NCBI GenBank assembly: GCA_030830285.1
Contig: JAURNF010000012.1
Coordinates: 1-35,976, forward strand
Source: Candidatus Kapaibacterium sp.
Lineage (GTDB): Bacteria > Bacteroidota > Ignavibacteria > Kapaibacteriales > Kapaibacteriaceae
Length of the DNA stretch: 35,976 nt
Reading direction: 5' to 3'
The position numbers and the translations under genes are program-made. A model generated the notes under the pieces. That model worked only from the letters and a program-made list of their open reading frames with translations. It did not search any database and had not been told where the DNA came from. This document shows positions 1,574 through 34,934 of this stretch, one piece after another (the first letter of the stretch is position 1; each line of letters opens with the position of its first letter).

Positions 1574-2584
1574 TTACAATTCAACGAATCCGGTTTTCTT
1601 GTACACCTTGCGCAGTGTTTTGCGCGCGCGATCACGCGCATGCTCGCCACCGCGACGAAGTGTTGCCTTGAGCGTGTCCTCGTCTGCACGGATGGCCTCG
1701 TAGCGCGAACGAACAGGAGCAATAAACGAAACGATTGCCTCGCCAACTGCCTCCTTGAACTCCGCATACCCAAGCCCGGCAAACTCCTGTTCGATCTCAG
1801 CGATCGACGCACCGGTTGTGATATGATACAACGTCATCAAGTTTGCAACGCCTGCGCGTCGCTCAGCATCAAAACGAATGTCAGTGCCGCTATCGGTTAC
1901 CGCACGCTTGATCTTCGCACGAATCTCCGCATCTGAATCTGTCAGGAAGATGGTTGCCTTTTCGTTGACATCCGACTTCGACATTTTCTTCTCGGGCTCC
2001 TGGAGCGACATGATCTTGGCACCAACCTTTGGGATGTAGGGCTCAGGCACCGTAAACGTCGGCGAATAATGGAAGTTGAACCGCTCGGCTAGATTGCGCG
2101 TGAGTTCAAGGTGCTGACGTTGATCTTCACCCACTGGTACGAGATCGGCATTGTACAGAAGGATGTCTGCCGCCATCAACACGGGGTACGTGAACAATCC
2201 CACATTCACGTTGTCAGCATGCTGCGCGCTCTTGTCCTTGAACTGCGTCATGCGCGAAACTTCTCCGAATCCCGCGAGACACTCCAGCACCCACGCAAGT
2301 TGGGTGTGCTCGGGCACTGATGACTGCACGAAGAGCGTCGAAACCTCTGGATCAATCCCTGCTGCCATGTACATCGCAGCTACGTCAAGCGTGCGCTTGC
2401 GCAGCTTGGCTGGTTCTTGACGCACAGTGATTGCATGTTGATCAACAACACAGAACAACGAATCGTACTGATGCTGCAGCTCCACCCAATTGCGGAGCGC
2501 CCCACAGTACTGTCCGATGGTGAGGTTGTTTGTCGGCTGCATGCCCGACAGGATAATCTTGCGAGGTTGTGCGGTAGGTTCCAT
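1574..2584 (-). CDS. trpS: Tryptophan--tRNA ligase
   Basis: SGMQPT..TIGQY.GA (HIGH-like), VDQHAIT, YPVLMAADIL, VPVGEDQRQHLE and KMSKS. Start moved to ATG 2584 (MEPTAQPRK), which lies 8 nt after a promoter-like box. Confidence 0.97.
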   Translation of the reverse strand: MEPTAQPRKIILSGMQPTNNLTIGQYCGALRNWVELQHQYDSLFCVVDQHAITVRQEPAKLRKRTLDVAAMYMAAGIDPEVSTLFVQSSVPEHTQLAWVLECLAGFGEVSRMTQFKDKSAQHADNVNVGLFTYPVLMAADILLYNADLVPVGEDQRQHLELTRNLAERFNFHYSPTFTVPEPYIPKVGAKIMSLQEPEKKMSKSDVNEKATIFLTDSDAEIRAKIKRAVTDSGTDIRFDAERRAGVANLMTLYHITTGASIAEIEQEFAGLGYAEFKEAVGEAIVSFIAPVRSRYEAIRADEDTLKATLRRGGEHARDRARKTLRKVYKKTGFVEL

Positions 2585-2592
2585 ACGTGAAG

Positions 2593-2600
2593 CAAAAATA
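2593..2600 (-). promoter_or_regulatory. Bacteroidota-type -7 promoter box TATTTTTG for trpS
   Basis: TAnnTTTG match ending 8 nt before ATG 2584. Confidence 0.65.
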
Positions 2601-2622
2601 CCGAGTGCATGTCGGAATGACG

Positions 2623-3886: not shown

Positions 3887-4698
3887 CCTCCGAGCACACT
3901 CTCCATTTCGGCACGCGTGGCAGCATCCCAATTTGCTCCCACAACGTCGAGCAATGCTCGCGAGAGATGGCAATACAACTGTCGGTCGGACGCAGGGATT
4001 GATTCTAACTGACGTCGCACAGCGTCGATGTCACCTCGCATCAGCGGACCGGTGATAGCAAACGCCGTGTTGTCGGCAATGGCAGTCGAAGCGTTCTGCA
4101 ATGTCCGCTGCATGATCGGCACAAGGAAGACATCAGCAGGGATGTCGGCCGAAGCAGCAAGACGTCGCGCAAGCTCGTATGCCGCATAGGTAAAGTTCGA
4201 TGCTGCAACTGCTGCTGCGTGATAGCGTCGTTTACGCTCATGCGTCATGTCTGTGAAGCGCCACGGAACACCGCCAAGCGACGCAATCAGGTCTCGCACA
4301 CTTCCCCACGCTGCATCATCTGCCTCAACGCCCCACCCAATGCCGTCGAGCGCCGTTGGATCGCTCGAGCCAAATGTCTGGAACGGATGTGCGGCTGCGC
4401 ATCGCGCACCACATGCGCGCAAGGGTGCCAACGCCTCGACACCGAGTGATCCATTCACGTGCATCACTACAACGTCATGCAATGCACTTGCCTTTGCGCG
4501 AGCAATCTCGGCGACAACGTCAGGCAACACATCATCCTTTGTTGCAATCACCACAACATCACCCAACGGCGTGGCATGCTCACACCATCCTGGAAACGAG
4601 GCACGATCGATAGCAACAACGCTGTGTACAACCGCAATGGCGCGCTGCTCAAGTGCACCACCTACGCGACCACGTCCGATGATGGTAATGGAGTGCAT
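3883..4698 (-). CDS. Rossmann-like/DUF2520 domain oxidoreductase (PanG-like family)
   Basis: IIGRGRVGGAL (GxGxxG), VMHVNGS, AAHPFQTF, YHAAAVAASNF and ITGPLMRGD are characteristic of DUF2520 proteins. Confidence 0.85.
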   Translation of the reverse strand: MHSITIIGRGRVGGALEQRAIAVVHSVVAIDRASFPGWCEHATPLGDVVVIATKDDVLPDVVAEIARAKASALHDVVVMHVNGSLGVEALAPLRACGARCAAAHPFQTFGSSDPTALDGIGWGVEADDAAWGSVRDLIASLGGVPWRFTDMTHERKRRYHAAAVAASNFTYAAYELARRLAASADIPADVFLVPIMQRTLQNASTAIADNTAFAITGPLMRGDIDAVRRQLESIPASDRQLYCHLSRALLDVVGANWDAATRAEMESVLGG

Positions 4699-6158
4699 TA
4701 CTTCGCAGACTCAAGTGTGTAGCCATCCTTGCCGTCTTTCATCGTCCATCCGCTGGCACTCAGCATGTCACGCAGACGATCACTCTCTGACCAGTTCTTT
4801 GCTGCTCGTGCAGCCCAGCGTTCTTCTGCGAGCGCACGTATGTCATCAGGCACAACAAGTGTTGGACGTTCTTCAATTGCGATAACGGCGAACACCTCGT
4901 TGACAACACGCAATGCGTCCACAACCGATGCTGCATCTGCTGGGGTGAGTGCGCGCGCAGGGTGTTCGTTCATAAACACAAACAACGCAGCAAGTGCACG
5001 AGGTGTGTGCACGTCGTCAGCGAGCGCCTGACCAACAGTGTCGATCAGCTGCTGGCCAACCCCGTCTGATGCTGAAGCGTGCAACGAACCAGCTACATCG
5101 ACAACATCATACACATAGTCCTGCACCTTTGCACGCGCAGTGCGTGCGGCAGTTACTCCGTCGAACGTGAAGTTGAACACGGCCCGATAGTGTGCTTGCA
5201 GCATGGCAAAGCGCACGTCGATTGGTTCGATGCCGCGTGCGATCAGATCGCGCATCGTGTAGAAGTTGCCGAGTGACTTCGACATCTTCTTGCCTTCGAC
5301 TTCGAGGAACTCGTTGTGCATCCAGAAAGATGCTTGGTCATGCACATGATATCCAGCAGTGCACTGCGCGAGTTCATCCTCGTGATGCGGGAATCGCAAA
5401 TCGACGCCGCCCGTATGAATATCGAACGGCAGTCCGAGCAGGTTCTGCGACATCGCCGAACATTCGATGTGCCATCCCGGACGTCCAGGAACATTCTGTC
5501 CGTCGATCTCGAAGTCCCATGATGGTTCGCCGTCTTTGCGCCCCTTCCAGAGCACGAAGTCACTCACTGACTCACGATCGTACTCGTCAGCATCGATGCG
5601 AACACCTTCGCGGAAGTTCTGCGTATCGATCGCAAACAAGCGTCCGTATGTGTGGTTTGCGGAGTACGCCGCCACATTGAAGTACACCGAACCATCGCTC
5701 ACGTAGGCATAGCCTGCGGCGAGGATGTCGCGCGTGAGCTCCTGCATCTGTGTGATGTAGTCCGTCGCACGCGGATTCGTCATGCGATCAACTTCAATAC
5801 CAAAGGTCTGCAGGTCGGCGAGGAACTCGCGTGTGAAGAACGATGTGAAACGACGGAGATTCTCCATCGGATCTGACGTCTGTTCGCCCATTTCTGCGCG
5901 CCACCGGGTAGACCCAACCGAACTGTCGCGAATCGTTTTATCGTCGATGTCGGTCACGTTCATCACCCAACGGACTGGGTAGCCCCCTATCACGCGCAAG
6001 GTGCGCTGCAAGACATCCGGGAAGAGGAATGCACGCATGTTCCCGATATGCGCCACATCATACACGGTGGGTCCGCATGAATACATGCGTACTCCATCGT
6101 CGCGAAGCGGAGCAAAGGGATCAATCGACTTGGTGAGGGTGTTGTACAGACGAATCAT
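4698..6158 (-). CDS. cysS: Cysteine--tRNA ligase
   Basis: MYSCGPTVYD.AHIGN, NVTDIDDK, DFVLWK, GRPGWHIECSAM, DIHTGGVDLRFPHHEDE and KMSKSLGN. Start at ATG 6158 (MIRLYNTLT). Confidence 0.98.
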   Translation of the reverse strand: MIRLYNTLTKSIDPFAPLRDDGVRMYSCGPTVYDVAHIGNMRAFLFPDVLQRTLRVIGGYPVRWVMNVTDIDDKTIRDSSVGSTRWRAEMGEQTSDPMENLRRFTSFFTREFLADLQTFGIEVDRMTNPRATDYITQMQELTRDILAAGYAYVSDGSVYFNVAAYSANHTYGRLFAIDTQNFREGVRIDADEYDRESVSDFVLWKGRKDGEPSWDFEIDGQNVPGRPGWHIECSAMSQNLLGLPFDIHTGGVDLRFPHHEDELAQCTAGYHVHDQASFWMHNEFLEVEGKKMSKSLGNFYTMRDLIARGIEPIDVRFAMLQAHYRAVFNFTFDGVTAARTARAKVQDYVYDVVDVAGSLHASASDGVGQQLIDTVGQALADDVHTPRALAALFVFMNEHPARALTPADAASVVDALRVVNEVFAVIAIEERPTLVVPDDIRALAEERWAARAAKNWSESDRLRDMLSASGWTMKDGKDGYTLESAK

Positions 6159-6161
6159 GTA

Positions 6162-6169
6162 CAAAAGTA
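6162..6169 (-). promoter_or_regulatory. -7 promoter box TACTTTTG for cysS
   Basis: TAnnTTTG match ending 3 nt before ATG 6158, inside the 27-bp hutI-cysS gap. Confidence 0.7.
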
Positions 6170-7774: not shown

Positions 7775-8840
7775 GACGATCCTGTGCACGCAGCGTAGTA
7801 ACGATGCGCTTCACGTCTTGCGCGCGATCTTTCGGACACACCATCGTAGCATCAGGAGTCACGACAACCACCGTGTCGCGCAGCCCCACGGTTGTTACCG
7901 TGTGCGCGCTTCCGTGTGCATTGACAATGATCGAACCTTCGGTGTCAACAACAGTAACCACGCCGTCGACCACGTTCTGTGCGTTGTCGAGCGGGCGCAT
8001 TCGTTCGAGCGCATCCCATGAACCAACGTCATCCCACGGGAACGTCGCTGGTACCACATGCACGTTGGTTGAGCGCTCCATCACGCCGTAATCGATCGAA
8101 ATGTCTGGCAGTGCGTGGAACATCTCCGACATATGCCCTGCATCGTTAGCCGCAAGGTCAGCGGTTAGCCCATCAATTGCATTGCCAACATCGGGCAACA
8201 CGTTCAGCATTGCAGAGCGAAGCGCCTCGGTGCGCCAGAAGAACATCCCGCTGTTCCACACATAACGTCCGCTGCGCACATACTCAAGGGCTGTGCTCAA
8301 ATCCGGCTTTTCTTTGAACTCAACAACATGCGACACACCAGAGACAACCGTTGGCTCGCCAACATGGATATACCCATACCCCGTCTCTGGTCGTGTCGGT
8401 GGAATACCAATCGTCACCAGCGCGTCATACGTTGATGCGAAGGTCAACGCACGCGACACATCAGCACGAAACGCATCGGCATTCCCAATGAAATGGTCTG
8501 CAGTTAATACCGCCATCAACGCGTCGTTGCCGTTCTCACGCGCACGAATCACGCTGCATGCGAGCGCCAAGCAAGGTGCAGTGTTTCGCTTTGCTGGTTC
8601 AGCAATCACATTCTCGCACGGAATTCCCGGCAGCGCGTCAATCAATGGCTGTTGGAGTACTTCGCTTGTGATGATGAGGATGCGCTCATGCGGAATCAGT
8701 GGTGCGATGCGATCAATCGCTTCTTCAATCATCATCGAAGACGATGTCAGCGCAAGAAGTTGCTTTGGCTTGCGCATCCTGGACACCGGCCAGAAGCGCT
8801 CACCAGAGCCGCCCGCCATGATCACGACGTAGGAATTCAT
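7761..8840 (-). CDS. manC: Mannose-1-phosphate guanylyltransferase
   Basis: VIMAGGSGERFWPVSR..KPKQLL, EPAKRNTAP, ADHFI, PETGYGYI, FKEKP, WNSGMF, SIDYGVME and WDDVGSW. No C-terminal isomerase domain. Confidence 0.95.
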   Translation of the reverse strand: MNSYVVIMAGGSGERFWPVSRMRKPKQLLALTSSSMMIEEAIDRIAPLIPHERILIITSEVLQQPLIDALPGIPCENVIAEPAKRNTAPCLALACSVIRARENGNDALMAVLTADHFIGNADAFRADVSRALTFASTYDALVTIGIPPTRPETGYGYIHVGEPTVVSGVSHVVEFKEKPDLSTALEYVRSGRYVWNSGMFFWRTEALRSAMLNVLPDVGNAIDGLTADLAANDAGHMSEMFHALPDISIDYGVMERSTNVHVVPATFPWDDVGSWDALERMRPLDNAQNVVDGVVTVVDTEGSIIVNAHGSAHTVTTVGLRDTVVVVTPDATMVCPKDRAQDVKRIVTTLRAQDRHDIL

Positions 8841-9823
8841 GTAGTGTGTTGAAGGAGTTCAAGAATCTGCACGGCATTGGTTGCCGCGCCCTTTCGAAGG
8901 TTATCGGCGACGATCCACATCAGCAGACCGTTCTCGACGCTATCATCACGACGAATTCGTCCGACGTATACGGGATCGGTTCCATCAGCTTCTGCGGGTG
9001 TTGGGTAGACGCCGTTCTGCGGCTCATCACGCACAACAACGCCGGGTGACGATGCGAGCAGTGCACGTGCGTCATCGGGAGTGCACGGCTGATCGGTTTC
9101 AATCGCGATCGATTCGCCGTGTCCACCCACAACAGGCACGCGGACACATGTCACTGCCATGCGCAGCGAAGGCATGTGAAGAATGCGACGTGTTTCGCGA
9201 ATCATCTTCTGTTCCTCTTCCGAGGATTCGTCGATGGCGTTGATTGTATGGAACACGGTGTTCCCTGCCAGACGATGCTGCGTGATCCGACGCTCCGGTT
9301 CACGTCCCGCAAGTTCGGCCGTTAGCTGGTCTATCCCCTGCTGTCCAGCCCCACTTGGCGATTGGTACGTGCTTACAACAAGACGTCGGCAACCCCATCG
9401 TTGAATGATTGGCTGCAAGGCAACGACAAGCTCGATCGTACTGCAATTGGGGTTCGCGATGATCCCGTTGTGCGTGTATGCGTCGGCGGGGTTCACCTCC
9501 GGCACCACAAGCGGAACATCTGGATGCATCCGCCACGCACTTGAGTTGTCGATCACGATACAGCCCGCGGCTGCAGCTATAGGAGCGAACTGCGTGCTGA
9601 GCGTGCCGCCGCAACTGAACAGCGCAACATCGATACCAGCGAAACTGTCGGCACGGAGTTCCTGTACTGTGAGCATCTCGCCACGAAATGGCAACTGTGT
9701 GCCAACGCTGCGCGCAGACGCAAGGAGCGTGAGCGACGAGATGGGGGTCGCGCGCTCTTCAAGCACGCGAAGCATGGTGCGGCCGACAAGACCTGTGGCA
9801 CCGACAATGGCAACATTTATCAC
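8837..9823 (-). CDS. asd: Aspartate-semialdehyde dehydrogenase
   Basis: VAIVGATGLVG, IDNSSAWRM..VPLVVPEVN, IANPNCST (catalytic Cys), TYQS.SGAG, CVRVPV.GH.E and ADNLRKGAATNAVQI. GTG start. Confidence 0.96.
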   Translation of the reverse strand: MINVAIVGATGLVGRTMLRVLEERATPISSLTLLASARSVGTQLPFRGEMLTVQELRADSFAGIDVALFSCGGTLSTQFAPIAAAAGCIVIDNSSAWRMHPDVPLVVPEVNPADAYTHNGIIANPNCSTIELVVALQPIIQRWGCRRLVVSTYQSPSGAGQQGIDQLTAELAGREPERRITQHRLAGNTVFHTINAIDESSEEEQKMIRETRRILHMPSLRMAVTCVRVPVVGGHGESIAIETDQPCTPDDARALLASSPGVVVRDEPQNGVYPTPAEADGTDPVYVGRIRRDDSVENGLLMWIVADNLRKGAATNAVQILELLQHTT

Positions 9824-9826
9824 GTG

Positions 9827-9834
9827 CGAAAATA
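9827..9834 (-). promoter_or_regulatory. -7 promoter box variant TATTTTCG for asd
   Basis: TAnnTTYG ending 3 nt before GTG 9823. Confidence 0.65.
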
Positions 9835-9844: not shown

Positions 9845-9852
9845 TACATTTG
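9845..9852 (+). promoter_or_regulatory. -7 promoter box TACATTTG for the PAP2 gene
   Basis: Exact TAnnTTTG ending 5 nt before ATG 9858. Confidence 0.7.
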
Positions 9853-9857
9853 CGTGC

Positions 9858-10577
9858 ATGAAGACACTTCTCCTTAGCATCTGCATTCTGGCCAGCGTTA
9901 GCATGTCTGCGCAATCGATCGACCCATTCAGCTGGGAGGGTCGGATTGGGTACGACCTCAACAAGATTGAATCGACCAAGAATTCATCGCGCTTTGTGTC
10001 GGATGCAGCACAGCCGATCTACATCGCCATCCCTTCTGCGATGTACGTCTACGGCGTAGCAGCATCACTTATCGATGCACCATCTGCGGATAAGCGATAC
10101 ATGGCAGAAACGGGTCTGCAGCAGTTCATCTCGCTGGGCATCACATATGGCGCTGTGCTCGGACTCAAGATGGCGATCGACCGGGAGCGTCCGTATCAGA
10201 AGTATGCCGGGATGATCGAGAACGGCGAAGAAGGAAACGACAAGTACTTCTCCTCCATGCCATCGGGTCACGCCGCCGGCGCAGCAGCGTTCGCAACAAC
10301 CATGAGTTTGCGCTATCCACAGTGGTACGTCATCGTTCCCACTGTTGGCTGGGCGCTCTGGACTGGTTACGCGCGCATGAATCTTGGTGTGCACTTCCTC
10401 ACCGATATCTTGGCGGGCTATGCACTCGGTGCAGGTATTGCCTACGGCGTACACCTGCTCAGCAGCCAGATCTTCAATCTTGCCGATCCAATCCTGCCGG
10501 CGTCCGGCTCAAACACAGCACTTGGTCTGAGCGGCACGCCCTACACGCCAATCTTCAGTTTCACGACGACCTTCTGA
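9858..10577 (+). CDS. PAP2 superfamily phosphatase with signal peptide
   Basis: C1 K-x6-RP (KMAIDRERP), C2 PSGH and C3 ARMNLGVHFLTD. N-terminal MKTLLLSICILASVSMSA. The ORF-track extension to 9405 is antisense to asd. Confidence 0.9.
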   Translation: MKTLLLSICILASVSMSAQSIDPFSWEGRIGYDLNKIESTKNSSRFVSDAAQPIYIAIPSAMYVYGVAASLIDAPSADKRYMAETGLQQFISLGITYGAVLGLKMAIDRERPYQKYAGMIENGEEGNDKYFSSMPSGHAAGAAAFATTMSLRYPQWYVIVPTVGWALWTGYARMNLGVHFLTDILAGYALGAGIAYGVHLLSSQIFNLADPILPASGSNTALGLSGTPYTPIFSFTTTF

Positions 10578-11365: not shown

Positions 11366-11379
11366 CATTGTTAGTACAT
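11357..11379. promoter_or_regulatory. Perfect 23-bp palindrome, probable TA autoregulatory operator
   Basis: ATGTACTAACA-T-TGTTAGTACAT (11-bp arms, 1-nt spacer). Overlaps the TACATTTG -7 box at 11375-11382 upstream of the antitoxin. Confidence 0.75.
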
Positions 11380-11413
11380 TTGCAGTCTCGTTCACCTTGT
11401 CACGTTTCGCACC

Positions 11414-11647
11414 ATGAAAACCACCTTACGTAGGATCGGCAACAGCCGCGGTGTGCTCATTCCAGCATCATTCCTCAAAGAGTGCAACATGACCGACACG
11501 GTCGAGATTGATATCGTCGATAATCGGATTGTGATTACTGCAGTTTCGGCACCACGGCAGGGATGGTTCCCGACTGCGGTGAACGACGCATCGGAGCTCG
11601 AGAGCATCCGCATTGACGACGACGCACCTGAGTGGGAGTGGGAATGA
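11414..11647 (+). CDS. mazE: AbrB/MazE/SpoVT family antitoxin
   Basis: MKTTLRRIGNSRGVLIP swapped-hairpin N-terminus, PRQGW motif and acidic tail ending EWEWE. ATGA overlap with the toxin. Confidence 0.9.
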   Translation: MKTTLRRIGNSRGVLIPASFLKECNMTDTVEIDIVDNRIVITAVSAPRQGWFPTAVNDASELESIRIDDDAPEWEWE

Positions 11648-11970
11648 GGAATGCCACTCCATCGCTGCAACGAGGCGAAGTGTGGTGGGTCAACCTCGAT
11701 CCAACCATTGGCACAGAGATCTGTAAGTCACGTCCAGCTGTCATCATCTCGCCAGGCGACATGAATGCGGCGCTGCCGCGTGTGATTATCGCTCCACTCA
11801 CGTCAAAATCTCACCCACTTGGGTGTCGACCCCAAGTGACGTTTAAGCGGAAGCGAGGGTTGATTCTTCTCGACCAACTGCGTGCTATTGACAAACAGCG
11901 GCTCATTCGCCCTATGGGTATGATCTCCGAGGAGCTATGGCTTCCTGTGCTTTTGGAGATGCTGAGTTAG
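11644..11970 (+). CDS. mazF: PemK/MazF family endoribonuclease toxin
   Basis: RGEVWWVNLDPTIGTEI.KSRPAVIIS, IIAPLTS and DQLRAIDKQRL. Start at ATG 11644 overlapping the antitoxin stop. Confidence 0.93.
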   Translation: MRNATPSLQRGEVWWVNLDPTIGTEICKSRPAVIISPGDMNAALPRVIIAPLTSKSHPLGCRPQVTFKRKRGLILLDQLRAIDKQRLIRPMGMISEELWLPVLLEMLS

Positions 11971-11981: not shown

Positions 11982-11989
11982 TAACTTCG
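11982..11989 (+). promoter_or_regulatory. -7 promoter box variant TAACTTCG for murC
   Basis: TAnnTTYG ending 3 nt before ATG 11993. Confidence 0.65.
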
Positions 11990-11992
11990 CTC

Positions 11993-13363
11993 ATGGTTTT
12001 TTCTTCTGTACGGCACATTCACTTCGTCGGTATCGGCGGCATTGGCATGAGCGGCATCGCCGAGATCCTGCTTTCGCAGGGCTTTAGCGTTAGCGGCTCG
12101 GACCTCCACCGTACAGAGGTCACAGACCATTTGGCTTCGTTGGGCGCTCGCATTTGTGTTGGACATAGCGCCGATCACCTTGGTGATGCAGAAGTGGTTG
12201 TGTATTCCAGTGCCGTTCGCCCTGACGCCAACCCAGAGACGCGTGCCGCGCTCGACCGGAAGATCCCGATCATTCGTCGTGCAGAAATGCTCAGCGAAGT
12301 GTCGCGCCTGAAGTACTGTCTGGCCATTGCGGGCACGCACGGCAAGACCACCACAACATCCATGTGTGGACTCGTGATGATGAAGGCAGGGATGGACCCA
12401 ACGGTCATCGTCGGCGGCAAGCTCAAAGGGTTAGGGGGCTCCAATGCTCGCCTTGGTCACGGTGATTGGATCGTGCTCGAGGCAGATGAGTACGATAGAT
12501 CCTTCTTGCAGCTTCTACCCACGATCGCCATCATCACCAACGTCGAAGCAGACCACCTCGATATCTACAGCGATCTCGACGACATCAAAGAAGCGTTCTG
12601 CGAATTCACAAACAAGGTACCGTTCTACGGTACGGCCTGCGTCTGTATCGACGACGAAGGCGTTCGTGATATCCTTCCGTCGATCTCACGCGTGGTCATG
12701 ACCTTTGGCACATCGGACGATGCGACGGTACGTGCCACCAACATCGTCTACACGCAGCGCAATACGACCTTCACGCTCACAGTCAATGGTGTCGATCGCG
12801 GCGAGATCATGCTGCATGTTCCGGGCGAGCACAACGTGCGCAATGCTCTGGCGGCCTGCGCGATGGCGCTTCGCTGCGGGATTGCGTTCGAGAAGATTCG
12901 CGACGGACTTGCAGACTTTGGCGGCGTCTACCGTCGTTTCGAGCTGCGTGGCGAGCGCAACGGCGTGCTTGTCATCGATGATTATGCGCATCACCCAACG
13001 GAGATTCGCGCGACCATCGACGCAGCGCGCAACGGCTGGCCGGGACGTCGAGTGGTGGCGGTGTTCCAACCCCATACGTACACACGAACGCGTGACTTCG
13101 TTGACGAGTTTGCCAGTGCCTGTGCCGAGGCCGATGTCGTCGTCCTCACCGATGTCTACGCAGCGCGCGAACAGCCAATCCCAGGCATCACGGGAGAGCT
13201 TCTCGCCACGGCTGCACGCGCTCTTGGACATTCCAGCGTGCACTATGTACCCAACGTCGTGGATGTCGCCGGACAGATTTCGGGCATGCTCCAACCGGGC
13301 GACGTCGTCCTGACCATGGGGGCTGGCGATATTCACAAAGTGGCCACCGCCCTCGTCGATTAG
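11993..13363 (+). CDS. murC: UDP-N-acetylmuramate--L-alanine ligase
   Basis: HFVGIGGIGMSGIA, AGTHGKTTTT, EADEYDRSFL, TNVEADHLD, DDYAHHPTEI and FQPHTYTRT. Confidence 0.98.
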   Translation: MVFSSVRHIHFVGIGGIGMSGIAEILLSQGFSVSGSDLHRTEVTDHLASLGARICVGHSADHLGDAEVVVYSSAVRPDANPETRAALDRKIPIIRRAEMLSEVSRLKYCLAIAGTHGKTTTTSMCGLVMMKAGMDPTVIVGGKLKGLGGSNARLGHGDWIVLEADEYDRSFLQLLPTIAIITNVEADHLDIYSDLDDIKEAFCEFTNKVPFYGTACVCIDDEGVRDILPSISRVVMTFGTSDDATVRATNIVYTQRNTTFTLTVNGVDRGEIMLHVPGEHNVRNALAACAMALRCGIAFEKIRDGLADFGGVYRRFELRGERNGVLVIDDYAHHPTEIRATIDAARNGWPGRRVVAVFQPHTYTRTRDFVDEFASACAEADVVVLTDVYAAREQPIPGITGELLATAARALGHSSVHYVPNVVDVAGQISGMLQPGDVVLTMGAGDIHKVATALVD

Positions 13364-13397: not shown

Positions 13398-13405
13398 TAA
13401 ATTTG
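13398..13405 (+). promoter_or_regulatory. -7 promoter box TAAATTTG for the PPIase genes (leadered)
   Basis: Exact TAnnTTTG in the murC-PPIase gap, 56 nt before ATG 13462. Confidence 0.55.
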
Positions 13406-21204: not shown

Positions 21205-22242
21205 ATGGCTCGCTCGAATGAACATACAGATCCGCAGCACCGCAGCGACGAAGACGTCGAATCAGCGCTGCGTCCTCAAGCCTTTGATGACTTCACGGGC
21301 CAGCCGAAGATTGTCGAGAACCTGCGCATTTTCATTGCTGCTGCACGCGGTCGTGGCGAGCCACTGGACCACGTGCTGTTGACTGGTCCGCCTGGCCTCG
21401 GCAAGACGACCCTGTCGCATATCATCGCACGCGAAATGCAGGCACAGATCAAGATCACGTCGGGTCCGGTGCTGGAAAAGCCCGGCGATCTCGCAGGTCT
21501 GCTCACGAGCCTCGATGAAGGCGACATTCTCTTCATTGACGAAATTCATCGCTTGTCGCCCGTGGTTGAAGAGTACTTGTACTCTGCCATGGAAGACTTC
21601 CGTCTCGACATCATGATCGACTCGGGTCCGGCCGCACGCTCGATTCAACTTGCCGTGCCACGCTTCACCCTTGTTGGTGCAACCACACGTCAGGGTCTGC
21701 TCACCGCACCACTACGCTCGCGCTTTGGCATCACGAACCGACTCGACTACTACGATGCTGCTGAGCTTACGCGCGTGATCACACGCAGCGCTGGTCTGCT
21801 CGGTGCCGCAATCGAACCCGCAGGCGCTGAAGAACTCGCACGCCGCGCACGCGGCACCCCGCGCATCGCAAACCGTCTGCTGCGTCGCACACGCGACTTC
21901 GCAGATGTGCGCGGCAGCGGCGTGATCACGCTCGACATCGCACGTATGGCACTTACAGCGCTCGACGTCGATGAGTTCGGACTCGACGAAATGGATACAC
22001 GGATCATTCTTGCGTTGATCGAGAAGTTCTCCGGCGGACCAGTTGGTGTAACAACACTTGCTGTGGCCGTAGGTGAAGAAGCCGGCACACTCGAAGAAGT
22101 GTACGAGCCGTTCTTGATTCAGCAAGGCTTCCTTCAGCGAACCCCACGCGGACGTATCGCCACACCGCTCGCGTATCGACATGTTGGCATCACCATTCCT
22201 TCATCACACCCTACTTTGTTCTCAGGAGATTCACCACCATGA
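21205..22242 (+). CDS. ruvB: Holliday junction branch migration helicase RuvB
   Basis: [49 protein letters not shown] and [17 protein letters not shown]. Confidence 0.98.
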
Positions 22243-23087: not shown

Positions 23088-23095
23088 TATCTTTG
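23088..23095 (+). promoter_or_regulatory. -7 promoter box TATCTTTG for proS
   Basis: Exact TAnnTTTG ending 4 nt before ATG 23100. Confidence 0.72.
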
Positions 23096-23099
23096 CTTC

Positions 23100-24566
23100 A
23101 TGAGCAAAGACATTACCTCTCGCGCCGACGATTATTCACAATGGTACATCGACCTCGTTCGTAAGGCGGGGCTCGCAGATTATTCAGCTGTAAAAGGCTG
23201 CATGGTGATCAAACCCTATGGCTTCGCCATCTGGGAGAACATGCGCGATACACTCGATCGCATGTTCAAGGACACCGGCCATGTGAACGCCTACTTCCCG
23301 CTCTTCATTCCGAAGAGTTTCCTCAGCAAGGAAGCAGCACACGTCGAAGGCTTCGCAAAGGAATGCGCCGTCGTCACACACTACCGTCTGAAGAACGCCG
23401 AAGACGGTTCAGGCGTCGTGGTTGACCCAGACGCAAAGCTCGAAGAAGAACTCATCGTTCGTCCGACATCCGAAACGATCATCTGGAACACCTACCGCGA
23501 TTGGATCGATTCGTATCGCGACCTTCCCCTGCTGATCAATCAATGGGCAAACGTTGTGCGCTGGGAAATGCGCACACGCCTGTTCCTGCGCACAGCAGAA
23601 TTCCTCTGGCAGGAAGGTCACACCGCACACGCAACACGCGACGAGGCAATCGAAGAAACACGGAAGATGCTCGACGTGTACGCGACGTTCGCCGAAGAAT
23701 GGATGGCCATGCCAGTTGTGAAGGGCGTCAAGACAGCCAACGAGCGCTTCGCTGGCGCGGAAGACACCTACTGCATCGAAGCACTGATGCAGGATGGCAA
23801 GGCGCTGCAAGCTGGAACATCGCACTTCCTCGGACAGAACTTCGCTAAGGCATTTGATGTGCAGTTCAACACCAAGGACAACACACGCGAGTATGTGTGG
23901 GCCACGTCATGGGGCGTGTCAACACGCTTAATGGGTGCGCTCGTGATGGCACACTCTGATGACGATGGTCTGATGATTCCACCACGTCTTGCTCCAACGC
24001 AAGTGGTGATTGTTCCGATTCCAAAGCCAACACCTGAACTCCTCGAGCGCGCCAACGCAATCGCAGCCGATCTGCGCAGCAAGGGCGTGCGCGTAAAGGT
24101 CGACACCGACGATCAGAACCGTCCTGGCTACAAGTTTGCTGAATACGAGAAGCTCGGCATCCCAGTGCGACTCGGCCTAGGTGCACGCGATCTTGAAAAC
24201 GGCACCATCGAAGTTGCACGTCGCGACACAAAAGAGAAGTCAAGCGTCGAACTCACGTCACTCACATCACACGTGGTCGATCTGCTTGATGCGATTCAAG
24301 CCAACATGTTCGAACGTGCTCGCGCCTATCGCGATTCGCACATCACACCTGTCGACACCTGGGATGAATTTGTCCGCTTGCTTGACGAGAAAGGGGGCTT
24401 CCTCAGCGCCCATTGGGACGGCACTGGCGAAACAGAAGAGCTCATCAAGACAGAGACAAAGGCAACCATTCGCTGCATCCCGCTCAACAACCCTCAGGAA
24501 GCAGGCACGTGCATCAAGACCGGAAAGCCAAGCACTCAGCGCGTGCTGTTTGCACGAGCGTATTAA
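23100..24566 (+). CDS. proS: Proline--tRNA ligase (archaeal/eukaryote-like type)
   Basis: [73 protein letters not shown] and C-terminal FARAY. Confidence 0.98.
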
Positions 24567-25504: not shown

Positions 25505-26618
25505 AACGTTCCACTGGTTTATTGCACTTGTCGTCATGTTGCTGAGCGCACCATCGATCTTTGCGCGCGATAGTACCGTCGTGACAGTACATGCGCTGCT
25601 TGATGCGGCGTATTCATCGTCGTTCAACGCACCACCAAACCACCAGCGTGCGTTCACACTTCAGCCATCACGGAACAATCAACTCGGCCTCATGCAGGGC
25701 ATCGCAGGCGTTGAGCTGCGCAACACACACGTGCGCGGGAAGTTCGCTGTGCAAAGCGGTTGGTTTGCCGATGTACTCTGGACAGGCGCGGATACAGCTG
25801 TTCGTTGGCTGAGCGAGGCATGGGCCGGCGTTCGGCTTACCGAGGGCATATGGCTCGATGCCGGCGTATACCCATCGCACATTGGCGCGGAGTCGATGAT
25901 CGCGCGCGACAACCTTGTGCTGTCGCGACTCTACGCGTCTGATGCTACGCCGTATGTCGAAACCGGCGCATCGCTCACGTGGGAAGAATCTGCGTCAACA
26001 ACGATCGCACTCCATGTGCTTAACGGATGGCAACGCATCACCGACAACAACGATGGCATCGCCGTCGGCACACGCATCACACACCGTCCAACAGACAATC
26101 TCGCCGTTACCTGGAGCACCTTTGTTGGTGATGAACAGCCCCGTGGACAAGAGCAGCAGATGCGGTGTTACAGCAACCTTTGGATGAGCTGGACGATTGC
26201 TACGAACACAACGCTCGTCGCCGTGGCCGACGTTGGAGCACAAGAACGCACGTTGAACGGCTATGACGTGGTGTGGTATCTCGGAGCGATTGCGGCATAT
26301 CGCATATCACCTGCGATGCAATTGGCAGCACGCATCGAGCACATGAACGACCAACGGAACGTCCTGTTCACGTCTGCCTCCAACCAACCGTTCGTCTCAA
26401 CCTCTGCATCGGCGAACATTGACGTACGCATCGGCGACAATCTGCTGCTGCGTGGCGAGGGGCGGATACTGCAAGCCCCATACGCAATGTTTCCATCACG
26501 TACGGGGCTTCGCATGAACGATGTCTTCGTAACGCTGTCTGCGTCGTATGCGTTTCAGCTACCGATTCTTACTCAGTATACAGCGTCGAGTTATCAACGT
26601 AGATCAAGTAATCCTTGA
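25491..26618 (+). CDS. Putative outer-membrane beta-barrel porin (OmpL-like/BBP2 type)
   Basis: Signal peptide, LSEAWAGV, WLDAGVYPSHIGAES....DN, TPYVETG, LNGWQ and AARIEH. Last strand LSASYAF is followed by a 20-aa tail. Confidence 0.78.
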   Translation: MKHARTFHWFIALVVMLLSAPSIFARDSTVVTVHALLDAAYSSSFNAPPNHQRAFTLQPSRNNQLGLMQGIAGVELRNTHVRGKFAVQSGWFADVLWTGADTAVRWLSEAWAGVRLTEGIWLDAGVYPSHIGAESMIARDNLVLSRLYASDATPYVETGASLTWEESASTTIALHVLNGWQRITDNNDGIAVGTRITHRPTDNLAVTWSTFVGDEQPRGQEQQMRCYSNLWMSWTIATNTTLVAVADVGAQERTLNGYDVVWYLGAIAAYRISPAMQLAARIEHMNDQRNVLFTSASNQPFVSTSASANIDVRIGDNLLLRGEGRILQAPYAMFPSRTGLRMNDVFVTLSASYAFQLPILTQYTASSYQRRSSNP

Positions 26619-26928
26619 TCTTACCGTCGACCATGTTGAACACGTTTGCGAACGGGACGCTGAGTGTTGAGCCGCTGTGACGTGTGTATGTCACGGTGCC
26701 TTCCGTGAGTACAAATCCGTCGCCTTCACGCACAACGAGGTCAGAGTGCTTGATTGCGGCGATGCTCTGGAACCATCCCTCGAGGAAGTTCACGATGGTG
26801 TCCTTGCCAACTACCGCTGGGTGGTTCGCAAAACGGAACTGTGCGTCGTCAGTCAGGAACGTTCCAAAGAGAACGTGATCCTTGGCATCGATGCCATTGA
26901 ACAGGACGCTGAAATCTGGGTTAGGCAT
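26569..26928 (-). CDS. SnoaL-like/NTF2 family protein
   Basis: FNGIDAKD...FLTDDAQFRFANHPAVVG..I, EGTVTYTRHSG.TLSVPFANVF and GKIKDYLIYVD. Start at ATG 26928 (alternative ATG 26958). Confidence 0.88.
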   Translation of the reverse strand: MPNPDFSVLFNGIDAKDHVLFGTFLTDDAQFRFANHPAVVGKDTIVNFLEGWFQSIAAIKHSDLVVREGDGFVLTEGTVTYTRHSGSTLSVPFANVFNMVDGKIKDYLIYVDNSTLYTE

Positions 26929-26966
26929 GTCAATTCTCAGATAAAAGTGGGAAAGCATCAAGAACA

Positions 26967-26974
26967 CGAACCTA
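26967..26974 (-). promoter_or_regulatory. -7 promoter box variant TAGGTTCG for the SnoaL-like gene
   Basis: TAnnTTYG 8 nt before in-frame ATG 26958 and 38 nt before ATG 26928. Confidence 0.5.
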
Positions 26975-27057: not shown

Positions 27058-27065
27058 TATCTTTG
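27058..27065 (+). promoter_or_regulatory. -7 promoter box TATCTTTG for lepA
   Basis: Exact TAnnTTTG ending 7 nt before ATG 27073. Confidence 0.7.
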
Positions 27066-27072
27066 CCGTCTT

Positions 27073-28872
27073 ATGAAGAACTACCGCAACTTTTGCATCA
27101 TCGCGCACATTGATCACGGCAAGTCGACCCTGGCAGACCGTCTGCTGGAGCGTACAGGACGTGTGTCGGCGCGCGAGATGACAATGAATCAGATTCTCGA
27201 CGATAATCCTCTTGAGCAGGAGCGTGGCATTACGATCAAGCTCCACGCCATCCAGATGGATTACAAAGCCAACGATGGTGAGACCTACAAGCTCAACCTC
27301 ATCGATACTCCGGGTCACGTGGACTTCTCCTACGAGGTGTCGCGTTCGCTGAGTGCGTGCGAGGGTGCGCTGTTGGTTGTTGACGCAACACAGGGCGTTG
27401 AAGCACAGACGATTTCGAATTTGTTCATGGCGATTGATCAAGGACTTGAGATCATTCCGGTGATCAACAAGATCGATTTGCCAAGTGCCGTGACAACAAT
27501 CGATAACGTGAAGCAGCAAGTGATCGACTTGATCGGCTGCAAGGAAGAAGACATGATCCTTGCGTCGGCCAAGGCCGGCATCGGTATCGATGAAATTCTC
27601 GAAACTGTTGTTGCGAAGATCCCACCACCGAAGGGCGATCCGAAGGCGCCGCTGCGCGCGCTGATCTACGATTCGATCTTCGATGCCTATCGCGGTGTTG
27701 TTGTAAACGTGCGCGTGTTCGATGGCACGATGAAGGAGAAAGACAAGATCGTCTTCATGAACACGAACCAGACGTATGACCTTGACGAGGTTGGTGTGTT
27801 GCACATGCAACGTCAACGCACGGGCATTCTCGAAGCAGGCAACGTAGGGTACTTCACGGCGGCAATTCGTCGTCTGCAAGACTCCAAGGTTGGCGACACC
27901 GTAACACTTGCAAACAATCCAACAACGAACCCTATTGAAGGCTTCCGCGAAGTGAAGCCGATGGTGTTCTCGGGTATCTACCCGGCTGACAGTGATGATT
28001 TCGAGGACTTGCGCGAAGCACTCGGCAAGCTTTCGCTGAACGACTCTGCAATTAGCTTTGAGCCTGAGTCGTCAAGCGCGCTCGGCTTCGGATTCCGCTG
28101 CGGCTTCCTTGGTCTGCTCCACATGGAGATCGTCCAAGAACGTCTCGAGCGCGAGTTCAACCAAGTGATCGTCACCACCGTACCGAACGTACGCTACAAG
28201 GTGATCACCACACGCGATGAAATTCTCTGGGTCGACAATCCATCGCAATTGCCGAATCCAACGTTGATCAAGGAAATTCAAGAGCCATTCATTCGTGCAC
28301 AGATCATTGCGCCATCGGAATACGTTGGCACAATCATGAAGCTTTGCATGGACCGTCGTGGCACAATGTTGGGTCAGTCGTACTTGTCTGCAGATCGTGT
28401 TGACATGACGTTTGACCTTCCGCTGGCGGAAGTGGTGTTTGACTTCTACGACAAGCTGAAGTCCAATACGCGTGGGTATGCATCGCTCGACTACGAATAC
28501 TCCGACTACAAGCAAGGCGAGCTTGTCCGCATGGACATTCTCCTAAACGGCGAACCAGTCGATGCGCTGTCATCGATCGTTCACCGTCAGAAGGCACACG
28601 AGTGGGGCAAGAAGTTGTGCGCCAAACTCAAGGAGCTCATCCCACGTCAGATGTTCGAGGTTGCGATTCAAGCAGCGATTGGTTCGAAGATCATCGCGCG
28701 TGAGTCCATCAGCGCCATTCGCAAGAACGTGATTGCCAAGTGTTATGGCGGCGACATTTCTCGAAAGCGCAAGCTCCTCGAGAAGCAGAAGGAAGGCAAG
28801 AAGCGCATGAAGCAAGTAGGCAAGGTGGAGATTCCACAGGAAGCATTCCACGCAGTTCTCTCAATTGACTAA
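27073..28872 (+). CDS. lepA: Translation elongation factor 4 (LepA)
   Basis: [55 protein letters not shown] and [25 protein letters not shown]. Confidence 0.99.
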
Positions 28873-31623: not shown

Positions 31624-32805
31624 CTATCGCCTTACTGCATCGGCAATCACAACTCGCACAGCACGACGTGCTGGGTATTGCGAGGCAACAATGGCGAGGA
31701 TGATGCCAATGGATGCAGCCACTACAACATCGATGGCGTGAACATCCACCGGGAGTGCGGGAATCGCATAGCCTTGCGTGACGTCGAATCGTATCCACGA
31801 GAAGGTGCGCTGGCCAATGCAGAGACCAACGCCTACGATGCTGCCAACGAGCACGCTGCCCACGCCAAGCACGAGACCTTGAAGCTGAAAGATGCGGTGG
31901 ACCTGTCGGTCGGTTGCTCCAATAGCCTTGAGTATGGCAATGTCGCGACGCTTCTCCATTACGCCGAGCGTGAGCGATACGAGGATGTTGAACGCAGCAA
32001 CGATTACGATGAGCGACAACACAATGAACGATCCTATACGCTCAAGACGCATCATGTCGAACATTGTCCGATGCAGGTCGCGCCACGTCTCAACCTGCAA
32101 GCCCCTTGCACGCATGATTTGTGCAGCATCTTCAGCACGATGAGGATCGTCGAGACGGATGTACGTGTATCGCGTTGTCGATGCGGGAGCGATGGTGGCA
32201 ACAACTGAATCAAGAACGTACATCTGCGGTGCGCTCGACGCGCCGTCTGCTGTGGGTGTGAGGATTCCACGCACCTGCACACGCGATCCAGACGGAATCG
32301 ACATCGTAAGAAGCGATGATTCAATTGCCTCGGGTGCGATGAGCGACAGCGTGTCACCGATGTATACGTTGAGCGCTTCGGCGATGTCGAGCGAGATCAC
32401 AGCACCAGTAAGTCCACCGCGACTCTCAACGCTGGCAGTTCCGATCATGGTTGCACGCGCTACGTCGTATTCAGCAAGTTCGTTGCGAATTCCGAGCGCT
32501 CGCGCGGCAGTGGAACGGCCGGGCAACTGCACAACGAGTGTGGACTGATAGACAGGTTGTACAAGGCGCGCACCACCGATCTCGCGCACATCGATTGGTG
32601 GACGCCCCATTACGCGCAGGTGCGGACCCGAGCTGGTCATGCTGTCGATGGCAACGTTGCGAAACCCGTTAAACAGCGACAGCACAATGATGAGGGCGGC
32701 AGTGCCAACGGCAATGCCTACCACCGAGATACCACCAATGAGTCCGATCGCCGATAATCGACGAGGGCGAACATATCTGAGTGCGAGTGCTGTTGTTGGG
32801 TTCAC
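31624..32805 (-). CDS. LolC/E family ABC transporter permease (lipoprotein release)
   Basis: ISVVGIAVGTAALIIVLSLFNGF, TWRDLH..F..MRLE, IVAAFNI...VMEKRRDIAILKAIGA and YPARRA. GTG start overlaps the ppk1 stop. Confidence 0.88.
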   Translation of the reverse strand: MNPTTALALRYVRPRRLSAIGLIGGISVVGIAVGTAALIIVLSLFNGFRNVAIDSMTSSGPHLRVMGRPPIDVREIGGARLVQPVYQSTLVVQLPGRSTAARALGIRNELAEYDVARATMIGTASVESRGGLTGAVISLDIAEALNVYIGDTLSLIAPEAIESSLLTMSIPSGSRVQVRGILTPTADGASSAPQMYVLDSVVATIAPASTTRYTYIRLDDPHRAEDAAQIMRARGLQVETWRDLHRTMFDMMRLERIGSFIVLSLIVIVAAFNILVSLTLGVMEKRRDIAILKAIGATDRQVHRIFQLQGLVLGVGSVLVGSIVGVGLCIGQRTFSWIRFDVTQGYAIPALPVDVHAIDVVVAASIGIILAIVASQYPARRAVRVVIADAVRR

Positions 32806-34922
32806 GACCGACGTTTGGATGGGAGGAACGATTGCTGCGAGCGCAACGGCGAATCACCTTGCGCAAGTCGACGGTAGAATCCGTCAGAATCAAGCACGCG
32901 CGTCTTCACCGTGTCGGCAAGATACGCCTTGAGTATCTCGCGCAATCGCTTCTTGACCTTCGTGTCATATACCGGGAACGCAATTTCAATGCGCCGGTCC
33001 ATGTTCCGCCCCATCCAGTCTGCACTCGAAATGAAGAGCGCATCATCTCCCCCATTGCGGAACCAGAAGATGCGACTATGCTCAAGGAATCGGTCGAGAA
33101 TGCTCCGCACCGTGATGTTGTCGCTCACCCCGGGTACTCCCGGTCGCAACGCGCAGACACCACGGACGATGAGCTCGATCTTAACACCAGCCATCGATGC
33201 TCGATACAGCGCCTGAATAATCGTCGTGTCGATGAGCGCATTCATCTTGGCGATGATGTGCCCCTTACCTCCCTGCTGCACGTGCGCGATCTCACGATCG
33301 ATCAGCGAGAGAAATGTCGAGCGCAGATTTAATGGTGCAACACCAAGGTGTTGCCACGAGGCATGTCGTGAGTACCCGGTGAGCAGATTAAACAGATGCA
33401 CGAAATCGCGCTCAAACTCCTGACGTCCAGTGAAGATCCCAACGTCGGTGTACACACGCGATGTGCCCAGATTGTAATTGCCTGTTGCAACGTGCGCATA
33501 AGTGAGCACGTTCACACCTTCTTTGCGCACTACCAGACACACCTTGCAATGGACTTTCAAGCCCATCACGCCGTAGACAACGTGCACGCCAGCTTGCTCA
33601 AGCGCACGCGCCCACTGGATGTTCGTCTCTTCATCAAATCGCGCCTTCAATTCAACAAAGGCGGTAACGTTCTTGCCAAGTGTCGCAGCACGCTTGAGCG
33701 CCTCGATCACCGGGGAACGTCCACCCGCGCGATACAACGTGATCTTGATTGCCAACACGTTCGCGTCTTCCGCAGCTGCCTCAATAAAGCGCACAACGGA
33801 ATTCGTAAACGAATCAAACGGATGGTGCACAAGGATGTCGCCATCCTTCAACACCTCGAAGATGTTCGTGCCGTCGCGCTCGAACTCTGCAACCTTTCGC
33901 GACGTAAACGGCACATCCTTGAGTGCTCGACGGTCGAGCTGCATCAGCGCTAAAAAGTCTTGCAGGTTCAGCGGCATATCCACGCTGTACACATCCGAAT
34001 GCTCCAACTCGAGCGCACGCGTGAAGAACTGCGTGAGCTTGCGTGGCATGTCCGGACTGATCTCCATGCGCACGGCGTCAGTACCCCAGCGGCGCTGCCG
34101 GATGCCTTCAGCAACAGCTGTGATCAAATCATTCGCTTCGTCCTCTGCGATGTCGACATCGGCGTCGCGCGTTACGCGGAAGAGGTGACTCTCCTCGACG
34201 CGCAGTCCGGGGAACAGGATGCTTGCGTGAGCACGAATGATGTCCTCGAACAGCACATAGTGGTGTCCACCCGTACGTGCCAACTTGATCAACCGCGGCA
34301 AGGCCGAAGGCAGCTGCACAACCGCCACCTTGATATCGTCATCATCGCTCTGCTCGTCGATGAGTTGGAACGCAATCGTCAGCGAGCGATTCAGCAGGCG
34401 CGGGAAGGGATGCCCAGGGTCAAGGGCAAGGGGCGTAAGCACCGGCATGATGTTGTCAACGAAGTCACGCTCGAGTTCGATGCGCTCTTCGGTTGACAGA
34501 TCGTCGTACTGATGAATGTGGATGCCCTCGCGCTGCAGCGCCGGCACGATGGTTGATCGCCACACGTCAGCTTGCCGCTTGTAGAGCGGAATGAGACGTG
34601 ATCGGATTTCTTTCATCTGTTCAAGGGGCGTCATCCCATCGGACGAGAGCTCGGTGACGCCGGAGTAGATCTGCTCTTGCAATCCGGCGACGCGAATCAT
34701 GAAGAACTCGTCGAGATTCGTCGAAAAGATCGCCAGGAACTTGAGTCGCTCCAGGAGCGGATGCGTGATATCCTCGGCTTCTTCTAAGACGCGCTTGTTA
34801 AACTCGATCCATGAGAGTTCACGGTTGAGATAGAGCGACTCATCGTCGAGATCAATCTGATGTGCGGTCGGCGAATGTCCTGCCGAGGTACGTTTGGTAG
34901 CTTTGGTGGTGCGCTTTGCCAT
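32802..34922 (-). CDS. ppk1: Polyphosphate kinase 1
   Basis: NRELSWIEFN.RVL, NLDEFFMIRVAGL, DPGHPFP, HHPFDSF, ELKARFDE, KVHCK (phospho-His region) and RFLEHSRIF..SSADWM.RN. Confidence 0.98.
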   Translation of the reverse strand: MAKRTTKATKRTSAGHSPTAHQIDLDDESLYLNRELSWIEFNKRVLEEAEDITHPLLERLKFLAIFSTNLDEFFMIRVAGLQEQIYSGVTELSSDGMTPLEQMKEIRSRLIPLYKRQADVWRSTIVPALQREGIHIHQYDDLSTEERIELERDFVDNIMPVLTPLALDPGHPFPRLLNRSLTIAFQLIDEQSDDDDIKVAVVQLPSALPRLIKLARTGGHHYVLFEDIIRAHASILFPGLRVEESHLFRVTRDADVDIAEDEANDLITAVAEGIRQRRWGTDAVRMEISPDMPRKLTQFFTRALELEHSDVYSVDMPLNLQDFLALMQLDRRALKDVPFTSRKVAEFERDGTNIFEVLKDGDILVHHPFDSFTNSVVRFIEAAAEDANVLAIKITLYRAGGRSPVIEALKRAATLGKNVTAFVELKARFDEETNIQWARALEQAGVHVVYGVMGLKVHCKVCLVVRKEGVNVLTYAHVATGNYNLGTSRVYTDVGIFTGRQEFERDFVHLFNLLTGYSRHASWQHLGVAPLNLRSTFLSLIDREIAHVQQGGKGHIIAKMNALIDTTIIQALYRASMAGVKIELIVRGVCALRPGVPGVSDNITVRSILDRFLEHSRIFWFRNGGDDALFISSADWMGRNMDRRIEIAFPVYDTKVKKRLREILKAYLADTVKTRVLDSDGFYRRLAQGDSPLRSQQSFLPSKRRS

Positions 34923-34926
34923 GGTA

Positions 34927-34934
34927 CGAAGCTA
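34927..34934 (-). promoter_or_regulatory. -7 promoter box variant TAGCTTCG for ppk1
   Basis: TAnnTTYG ending 4 nt before ATG 34922. Confidence 0.65.

Follow-up and report, generated by a model that had tools for sequence, protein, structure and literature searches.

Abutted -7 promoter boxes and candidate leaderless genes in a Kapaibacterium-like member of the Bacteroidota

The Bacteroidota are the textbook case of translation without Shine-Dalgarno (SD) sites on messenger RNAs that nonetheless carry leaders. A contig of 35,976 nucleotides from Candidatus Kapaibacterium sp. (JAURNF010000012.1, assembly GCA_030830285.1), here called the window, departs from this picture in that ten of its 36 genes have the box TAnnTT(T/C)G, a form of the -7 promoter element of the phylum, only 3-8 nt ahead of the start codon. 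Across the genome such boxes abut the starts of about 150-200 genes, and as judged from their position these genes probably give rise to leaderless or near-leaderless mRNAs, beside other genes that are leadered or led by SD sites. The abutted layout is a minority mode. The pattern itself is genuine, has firm statistical support and is conserved in one family.

Within a genome of 2.27 Mb in 277 contigs (54% G+C, 90% completeness), the window forms contig C33. The genus Kapaibacterium is filed under Bacteroidota by NCBI, and the LepA protein is 76-80% identical to those of Kapaibacterium metagenome-assembled genomes (MAGs). Scanning both strands of the window gives 23 strict boxes (15 on the plus and 8 on the minus strand), strict meaning TAnnTT(T/C)G throughout. 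With 964 boxes on 2 x 2.27 Mb in the genome as a whole, only about 0.05 of the 36 genes would be expected to have a box at 3-8 nt. Boxes followed at this distance by ATG or GTG number 15, as against 3.6 +/- 2.0 in 300 dinucleotide shuffles, whose maximum was 13. The ten boxes are those that a sequence-only reading of the window had pointed out, and all lie where it placed them. The window is about three times richer than the genome, since on contigs of at least 20 kb abutted boxes were found in 39 of 382 genes.

The start codons in question appear secure. NCBIfam profiles confirm the names and starts of nine of the ten genes (trpS, cysS, asd, murC, bamD, ruvB, proS, lepA and ppk1). Positions 1-8 of these profiles align to residues 2-16 of the proteins, which leaves no room for a start further downstream, and no start codon precedes the abutted one in the open frames of murC, ruvB, proS, lepA, ppk1 and asd. 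The tenth, a PAP2-like gene, has a weak partial profile match only, and its name and start rest on our own gene call.

The positional preference holds genome-wide. Where gene calls are left aside, TAnnTTTG is followed by ATG at a spacer of 3-6 nt in 105 of 452 sites (47 at exactly 4 nt), compared with 22 at 9-12 nt. When an open reading frame of at least 100 amino acids is required, the counts at spacers 3, 4, 5 and 6 are 16, 49, 17 and 14, and those of the TTCG form are 18, 23, 19 and 11 (of 512 sites). Nine control motifs treated in the same way are flat and show no peak at spacers 3-6.

Genes were called with a simple dicodon caller of our own that is blind to the motif, and 1762 of the 1975 genes called are complete. 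A start is termed abutted if it lies 3-7 nt from the end of a strict box. When any candidate start near the called start is accepted, 154 of the 1762 complete genes are abutted, with spacers of 3 nt in 33, 4 nt in 65, 5 nt in 27, 6 nt in 22 and 7 nt in seven. Another 236 genes have a strict box 8-150 nt upstream, 17 of them at 8-19 nt and 137 at 20-59 nt. The distribution of distances is therefore bimodal, a sharp peak at 4 nt being separated by a trough at 8-19 nt from a broader one at 20-60 nt, and the reversed control motif is flat (72 genes in all). Of the 390 genes that have such a box at up to 150 nt, 154 (39%) are of the abutted kind, genes and not transcription units being counted. The earlier description of the layout as pervasive and genome-wide was thus too strong; the total is 154 of 1762 genes, or 204 with the short variants described below, and about as many genes, or more, have a box 20-60 nt upstream.

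Abutted boxes are found mostly at operon heads. They occur in 84 of 462 genes divergent from their upstream neighbour, in 39 of 518 with a same-strand gap of more than 25 nt, and in 27 of 732 operon-internal genes; four are at contig edges. Counting at the caller's own starts gives 48/462, 26/518 and 21/732, respectively. The box is thus not equally common before internal genes, and in the window no strict box precedes the operon-internal genes named by Pfam (uvrD, amidohydrolase, manC, mazF, era, thioesterase and others), which bears out what had been read there. In nine divergent pairs of the genome, 28-122 nt apart, both starts are abutted.

The same box precedes tRNA, tmRNA and rRNA genes, and for this reason it is regarded as a promoter rather than a ribosome site. 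Of the 40 tRNA genes, 23 are preceded at 3-24 nt by a strict box that keeps its usual flanks (cGTA..TTTGy), where about 0.2 would be expected. Another is found 25 nt ahead of the tmRNA gene, and in G071, a closed genome of the same family, one lies 169 nt ahead of the 16S gene. No strict box is present within 90 nt of rnpB, and a gene for the signal recognition particle RNA was not found in the genome. So far as can be judged from sequence, the box serves transcription, as had been proposed. At the tRNA-Lys (ctt) gene (G000:C126:407-481) the box ends 3 nt before the predicted mature 5' end, and the transcript may start at or inside that end; for most other tRNA genes the predicted 5' leaders are only about 3-15 nt.

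The transcription apparatus is in keeping with the phylum. A single RpoD-like gene was found, encoding 302 amino acids with Pfam regions 1.2, 2, 3 and 4 and no region 1.1; sigma-ABfr, the Bacteroides-type primary sigma factor, is likewise described as being without region 1.1 (PMC6847099). The mapped primary-sigma promoters of Bacteroides fragilis, Flavobacterium johnsoniae and Flavobacterium psychrophilum (-33 TTTG, -7 TAnnTTTG) share the -7 consensus found here and are also served by a short sigma factor. The -7 box of F. johnsoniae spans T-12 to G-5, and probable promoters are given there with 4-5 nt from box to start (PMC6847099). In F. psychrophilum the box occupies -12 to -5 (PMC9723704). 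The modal distance of 4 nt found here therefore equals the mapped distance from G-5 to +1 in two Flavobacterium species, and the suggestion that transcription begins a few nt after the box fits this spacing. Unlike the mapped promoters, the boxes here have strong flanks, with G before the box in 67% and C after it in 51% (the gTAnnTTYGc pattern already apparent in the window), and no -33 element is detected: in 179 aligned sites every position between -45 and -5 of the box stays at 0.09 bit or less. The -33 element of F. johnsoniae is also said to be 'much less evident' (PMC6847099).

A further difference from mapped Bacteroidota promoters is that TTCG is an equal partner of TTTG. No other one-mismatch variant is enriched genome-wide; the counts are 60 for TTCG, where controls give 10-20, and 95 for the exact box, where they give 8-22. 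It is used at three tRNA genes, and the two forms interchange at the same lepA position within the genus (TATCTTTG and TAACTTCG), so that the proposal of TTCG as a lineage variant stands. A shorter form, TAnnTTGC, peaks at spacers 4-5 genome-wide (22 + 22 of 450 sites). Together with TAnTTTG it adds 50 genes (controls 5 and 14), mostly through TAnnTTGC, and these account for the total of 204 of 1762. In F. psychrophilum a motif named SM5, TAnnTTGY at -12 to -5, was assigned by the authors to an alternative sigma factor (PMC9723704). TAnnTTGC matches this motif; as a difference from SM5, it sits 4-5 nt from start codons here, as the main box does.

The abutted genes also have the hallmarks expected of leaderless mRNAs. 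The start codon is ATG in 139 of 154, compared with 1097 of 1608 other genes, position -1 is a pyrimidine in 134 of 154, and an SD-like 4-mer is present in only 2%. Operon-internal genes have SD-like 4-mers in 37% of cases, as against 11% in a control stretch, and are enriched in purines and G at -12 to -8. The 3' end of the 16S rRNA, which carries the anti-SD, reads ..CACCTCCTTT in G071, the one genome from which it was taken; the 16S gene was not found in this genome nor in four of the five family genomes searched. Because of the internal 4-mers and the 16S end of this relative, the cell seems to use SD pairing for coupled genes, unlike the Bacteroidia, and the assumption of a generally SD-less organism has to be given up.

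The phylogenetic range of the layout was followed with an index, the ratio of TANNTTTG-N3-6-ATG to TANNTTTG-N9-12-ATG counts, taken from samples of the class (121 genomes) and the phylum (251 genomes). This genome has a value of 4.7, and four genomes of its genus have 2.4-5.9. A second genus gives 1.8-2.3 and a third 4.1, so that all eight family genomes are raised (1.8-5.9). Six order-level relatives have 0.7-1.1, and most of the 114 + 243 genomes outside the family (33 common to both samples) have about 1.0-1.3. The highest values outside the family, where counts are adequate, are 1.8-1.9 (G070, G169 and G243); ATGs that occur by chance dilute the index in AT-rich relatives. If the counts at spacers 9-12 are subtracted from those at 3-6, the family genomes have an excess of about 60-110, and a few larger genomes from other groups (e.g. 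G181, G187 and G196) attain about 110-160. Abutted promoters are therefore not confined to the family, and it is their share that is unusual. In sampled DNA there are peaks in G330 (6, 10, 10 and 8 of 113 boxes) and G071, and a weak one in a 400-kb sample of G081 (5 and 5 of 77) despite its whole-genome index of 5.6. No peak was seen in sampled DNA of G007 (33% G+C).

Individual boxes are conserved in position. At lepA the box lies 5-7 nt before the ATG in 14 of 26 family loci, including seven of eight in the genus, with others at 10-11 nt in five, at 33-41 nt in five and two unclear. The proS spacer is 4 nt in five of six family loci, and that of ruvB is 4 nt in both of the two genus relatives. 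At all three genes the flanks have otherwise diverged around the conserved box. The eight closest lepA loci outside the family have the box at 23-38 nt in five cases and none within 60 nt in three. Single abutted promoters turn up widely across the phylum, since a box 4-8 nt before the lepA ATG was observed in eight of 80 loci, mostly from Bacteroidales MAGs (L036, L039, L042, L046, L053, L058, L059 and L069).

The identity of the box, its spacing, its distribution and its conservation are thus matters of observation, and a mechanism can be proposed on their basis. The sequence cGTAnnTT(T/C)Gc is read as the -7 element of a primary-sigma promoter of the Bacteroidota type. At about 150-200 genes, mostly operon heads, this element is separated from the start codon by 3-7 nt, most often 4, and RNA polymerase would then start on the A of the AUG or within 0-3 nt of it. 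A 4-nt spacer, with the G of the box at -5 as in Flavobacterium, places +1 on the A of the ATG, and spacers of 5-7 nt would give leaders of 0-3 nt. From these transcription starts a mode of translation may be inferred in which the ribosome initiates on a 5'-terminal AUG with neither a leader nor SD pairing. The remaining promoters of the same type would give leaders of 20-60 nt, and downstream operon genes would rely on SD-like sites.

It is tempting to go further. The family may possibly have moved a large block of housekeeping operon heads (tRNA synthetases, lepA, ruvB, murC and ppk1) to true leaderless expression from an extended -7 box alone, no -33 element taking part, with three modes of initiation side by side, i.e. 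leaderless, SD-led and leadered without SD. This wider proposal is offered tentatively, and the evidence cited so far leaves it somewhat less assured than the presence of leaderless or near-leaderless mRNAs as such.

Several points weigh against leaderless expression. At the 33 sites of 154 with a 3-nt spacer, transcription would have to begin 1 nt nearer the box than it most often does in the Flavobacterium maps, as otherwise the AUG would be cut. The promoter architecture is only half matched, with the -33 element unseen in 179 aligned sites. Gene calls were home-made and any nearby start was allowed, and from the controls about 13-25 of the 154 abutted boxes are expected by chance. The 27 boxes that precede operon-internal genes are possibly also read from leadered upstream transcripts. 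The leadered lepA arrangement (33-41 nt) in five of 26 family loci and in the nearest out-of-family relatives points to a layout that is changeable. In addition, the RNA data consist of assembled contigs, which are unable to show transcription starts. Parts of the window are present in 19 runs; four were compared, with observations taken from 32 of 148 pieces, and none among the RNA pieces listed bridges or ends at an abutted start.

This raises the question of whether the abutted boxes are real but minor promoters, most transcripts being leadered and coming from upstream promoters or read-through, so that leaderless mRNA would be a small share. The operon-internal boxes just mentioned would be consistent with this, as would the 22 of 150 that lie less than 12 nt from the upstream gene, and a coding density of about 95% (from our own gene calls) makes read-through plausible. 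The RNA-library contigs decide neither way. However, 84 of the 154 abutted genes are transcribed away from the adjoining gene and so have no same-strand upstream gene to supply a transcript, the nine doubly abutted pairs leave only 28-122 nt between their starts, and a leadered form would, with SD-like sites in only 2%, be without an obvious ribosome site. An arrangement of minor promoters is for these reasons unlikely. Much less probable still is a role of the box as a non-SD ribosome-binding signal on leadered mRNAs, placed as an SD would be. The distance of 3-8 nt does resemble SD spacing, and by GeneMarkS-2 non-SD motifs near starts are found in 400 of 436 Bacteroidetes (PMC6028130, Table S4). 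But a ribosome signal would hardly be found at untranslated genes (the 23 tRNA genes, tmRNA and a 16S), nor 20-60 nt before 137 other genes. The box is also rare before operon-internal genes (27/732), which have SD-like sites instead, and its consensus coincides with that of the -7 element mapped for sigma-A.

Chance, or a by-product of base composition and codon usage, has hardly any probability as an explanation. AT-rich relatives do have many box-ATG pairs at every spacing, and a period-3 pattern is seen inside genes of G007. The controls contradict it nonetheless: neither the nine control motifs nor other spacers have a peak, the shuffled window yields far fewer pairs than observed, and the position is conserved at orthologous genes amid diverged flanks. 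Leaderless or near-leaderless mRNAs from abutted boxes are therefore the reading retained here.

Comparison with mapped transcriptomes brings out the difference from the Bacteroidia that had been suspected. In F. psychrophilum 5.5% of mRNAs are leaderless (PMC9723704), and in F. johnsoniae 87% of leaders are longer than 10 nt and 13% are 10 nt or less (PMC6847099), whereas about 40% of box-bearing genes are abutted here, the starts in this case being predicted. In a survey by Zheng et al. leaderless genes were reported in one of 37 Bacteroidetes/Chlorobi, by a Pribnow-based method that may miss them (PMC3160421). Of 436 Bacteroidetes classified by GeneMarkS-2, 400 fall in the non-SD group B and seven in the leaderless group C, which takes in eight of 455 genomes of the FCB group (PMC6028130, Table S4). 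Group C is described for Actinobacteria and Deinococcus-Thermus, with 25-50% of operons (PMC6028130).

The present genome resembles group C in that a promoter box stands close to the first genes of operons at a constant spacing and rarely precedes internal ones, in the mixture with leadered, SD-bearing genes, and in candidate leaderless genes that almost lack SD-like sites and prefer AUG. Counted by gene and not by operon, about 40% of recognizable box promoters are abutted, a figure inside the group C range, but these are only 154-204 of all 1762 genes. Unlike group C, the box here is the Bacteroidota -7 element and not a Pribnow box, and the lineage belongs to the FCB group, few of whose genomes were placed in group C. 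The finding is a new lineage for a principle established in Actinobacteria and Deinococcus. As judged on the titles and abstracts listed, the literature holds no account of a Bacteroidota lineage rich in leaderless genes; one paper loosely terms leaderless initiation prevalent in Bacteroidetes, on the grounds of the missing SD (PMC12123416).

With about 40% of recognizable promoters abutting a start codon in one family, the strategy of initiation would be able to shift at the family level within a phylum. Sister lineages of the same order, which have no peak, offer a natural comparison for what ribosomes need in leaderless starts. If the proposal is true, two divergent genes can share gaps as short as 28-38 nt with a promoter each, and adaptations of the ribosome or of initiation factors, unseen in the Bacteroidia studied so far, would be implied. 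There are also practical uses. Where gene prediction relies on ribosome sites, starts in genomes of this kind can be placed wrongly, whereas the box is an exact start signal; the strict box also provides a promoter model for annotating freshwater Kapaibacterium-like genomes.

The individual sites of the window are as follows, beginning with those on the minus strand. The trpS gene (1574-2584) has its site at 2582-2600, with the box TATTTTTG at 2593-2600 and an 8-nt spacer to ATG 2584; this box heads a unit of trpS, a Zn-ribbon gene and uvrD, and the start is supported by TIGR00233, in which residue 8 corresponds to profile position 2. At cysS (4698-6158; site 6156-6169) the box TACTTTTG occupies 6162-6169, 3 nt from ATG 6158, and residue 2 corresponds to position 1 of TIGR00435. 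The site of ppk1 (32802-34922) is at 34920-34934, with TAGCTTCG at 34927-34934 and a 4-nt spacer to ATG 34922.

The asd gene (8837-9823) on the minus strand and the PAP2-like gene (9858-10577) on the plus strand are divergent, with a gap of 34 nt that holds two back-to-back boxes, one per strand. That of asd, TATTTTCG at 9827-9834 (site 9821-9834), is 3 nt from GTG 9823, and that of the PAP2-like gene, TACATTTG at 9845-9852 (site 9845-9860), is 5 nt from ATG 9858. Any -33 region of these promoters would fall inside the coding sequence of the neighbour.

The other abutted sites are on the plus strand. The murC box, TAACTTCG at 11982-11989 (site 11982-11995), is 3 nt from ATG 11993, and residue 8 of the protein aligns to position 1 of TIGR01082. 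At bamD (site 18662-18677) the box TAACTTTG at 18662-18669, 5 nt from ATG 18675, overlaps the final codons of an era-like GTPase gene (17792-18664). Both ruvB and proS have 4-nt spacers; the former has TATCTTCG at 21193-21200 before ATG 21205 (site 21193-21207), and the latter TATCTTTG at 23088-23095 before ATG 23100 (site 23088-23102). At lepA (site 27058-27075) the sequence TATCTTTG is found again, at 27058-27065, with a 7-nt spacer to ATG 27073, and heads a unit that includes lepA, two signal-peptidase (S26) genes and a radical-SAM/HemN-like gene.

Two degenerate copies, each 4 nt before a start on the plus strand, had also been proposed, and only one of them can be kept. At the gene starting at 16918 (site 16907-16920) the sequence is the short variant TATCTTG followed by C (16907-16914), with 4 nt from the G to ATG 16918, and belongs to the enriched TAnnTTGC class, which precedes this gene and 45 others. 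The copy before ATG 2635 (site 2623-2637), CATTTTTG, has one mismatch and is not supported as a box, because CAnnTTTG has no positional peak and belongs to no enriched class.

Leadered boxes are present in the window as well, near mazE and the PPIase-domain gene, as had been noted. The first, TACATTTG at 11375-11382 on the plus strand, is upstream of a mazE/mazF-like toxin-antitoxin pair (11414-11970), which lies between a nitrilase-family gene and murC; the PemK/MazF domain of mazF is at 11680-11970. The second, TAAATTTG at 13398-13405 on the plus strand, is 56 nt ahead of ATG 13462 of the PPIase-domain gene. Contigs from RNA libraries of two studies begin at 13418 and 13422, 13-17 nt past this box, which is a weak hint of a transcription start after it.

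A further candidate that had not been listed before is found on the minus strand at a SnoaL-like gene (site 26959-26974), where the box TAGGTTCG at 26967-26974 lies 5 nt from TTG 26961 and 8 nt from ATG 26958. Contigs of two studies span this gene (26569-26947) from the stop codon almost to the start. The RNA-library contigs come from runs labelled lake, freshwater or aquatic and match the window at 95-99% or more. Elsewhere in the genome there is a tRNA-Sec gene (G000:C225:11297-11387), and because of its presence the organism probably makes selenoproteins.

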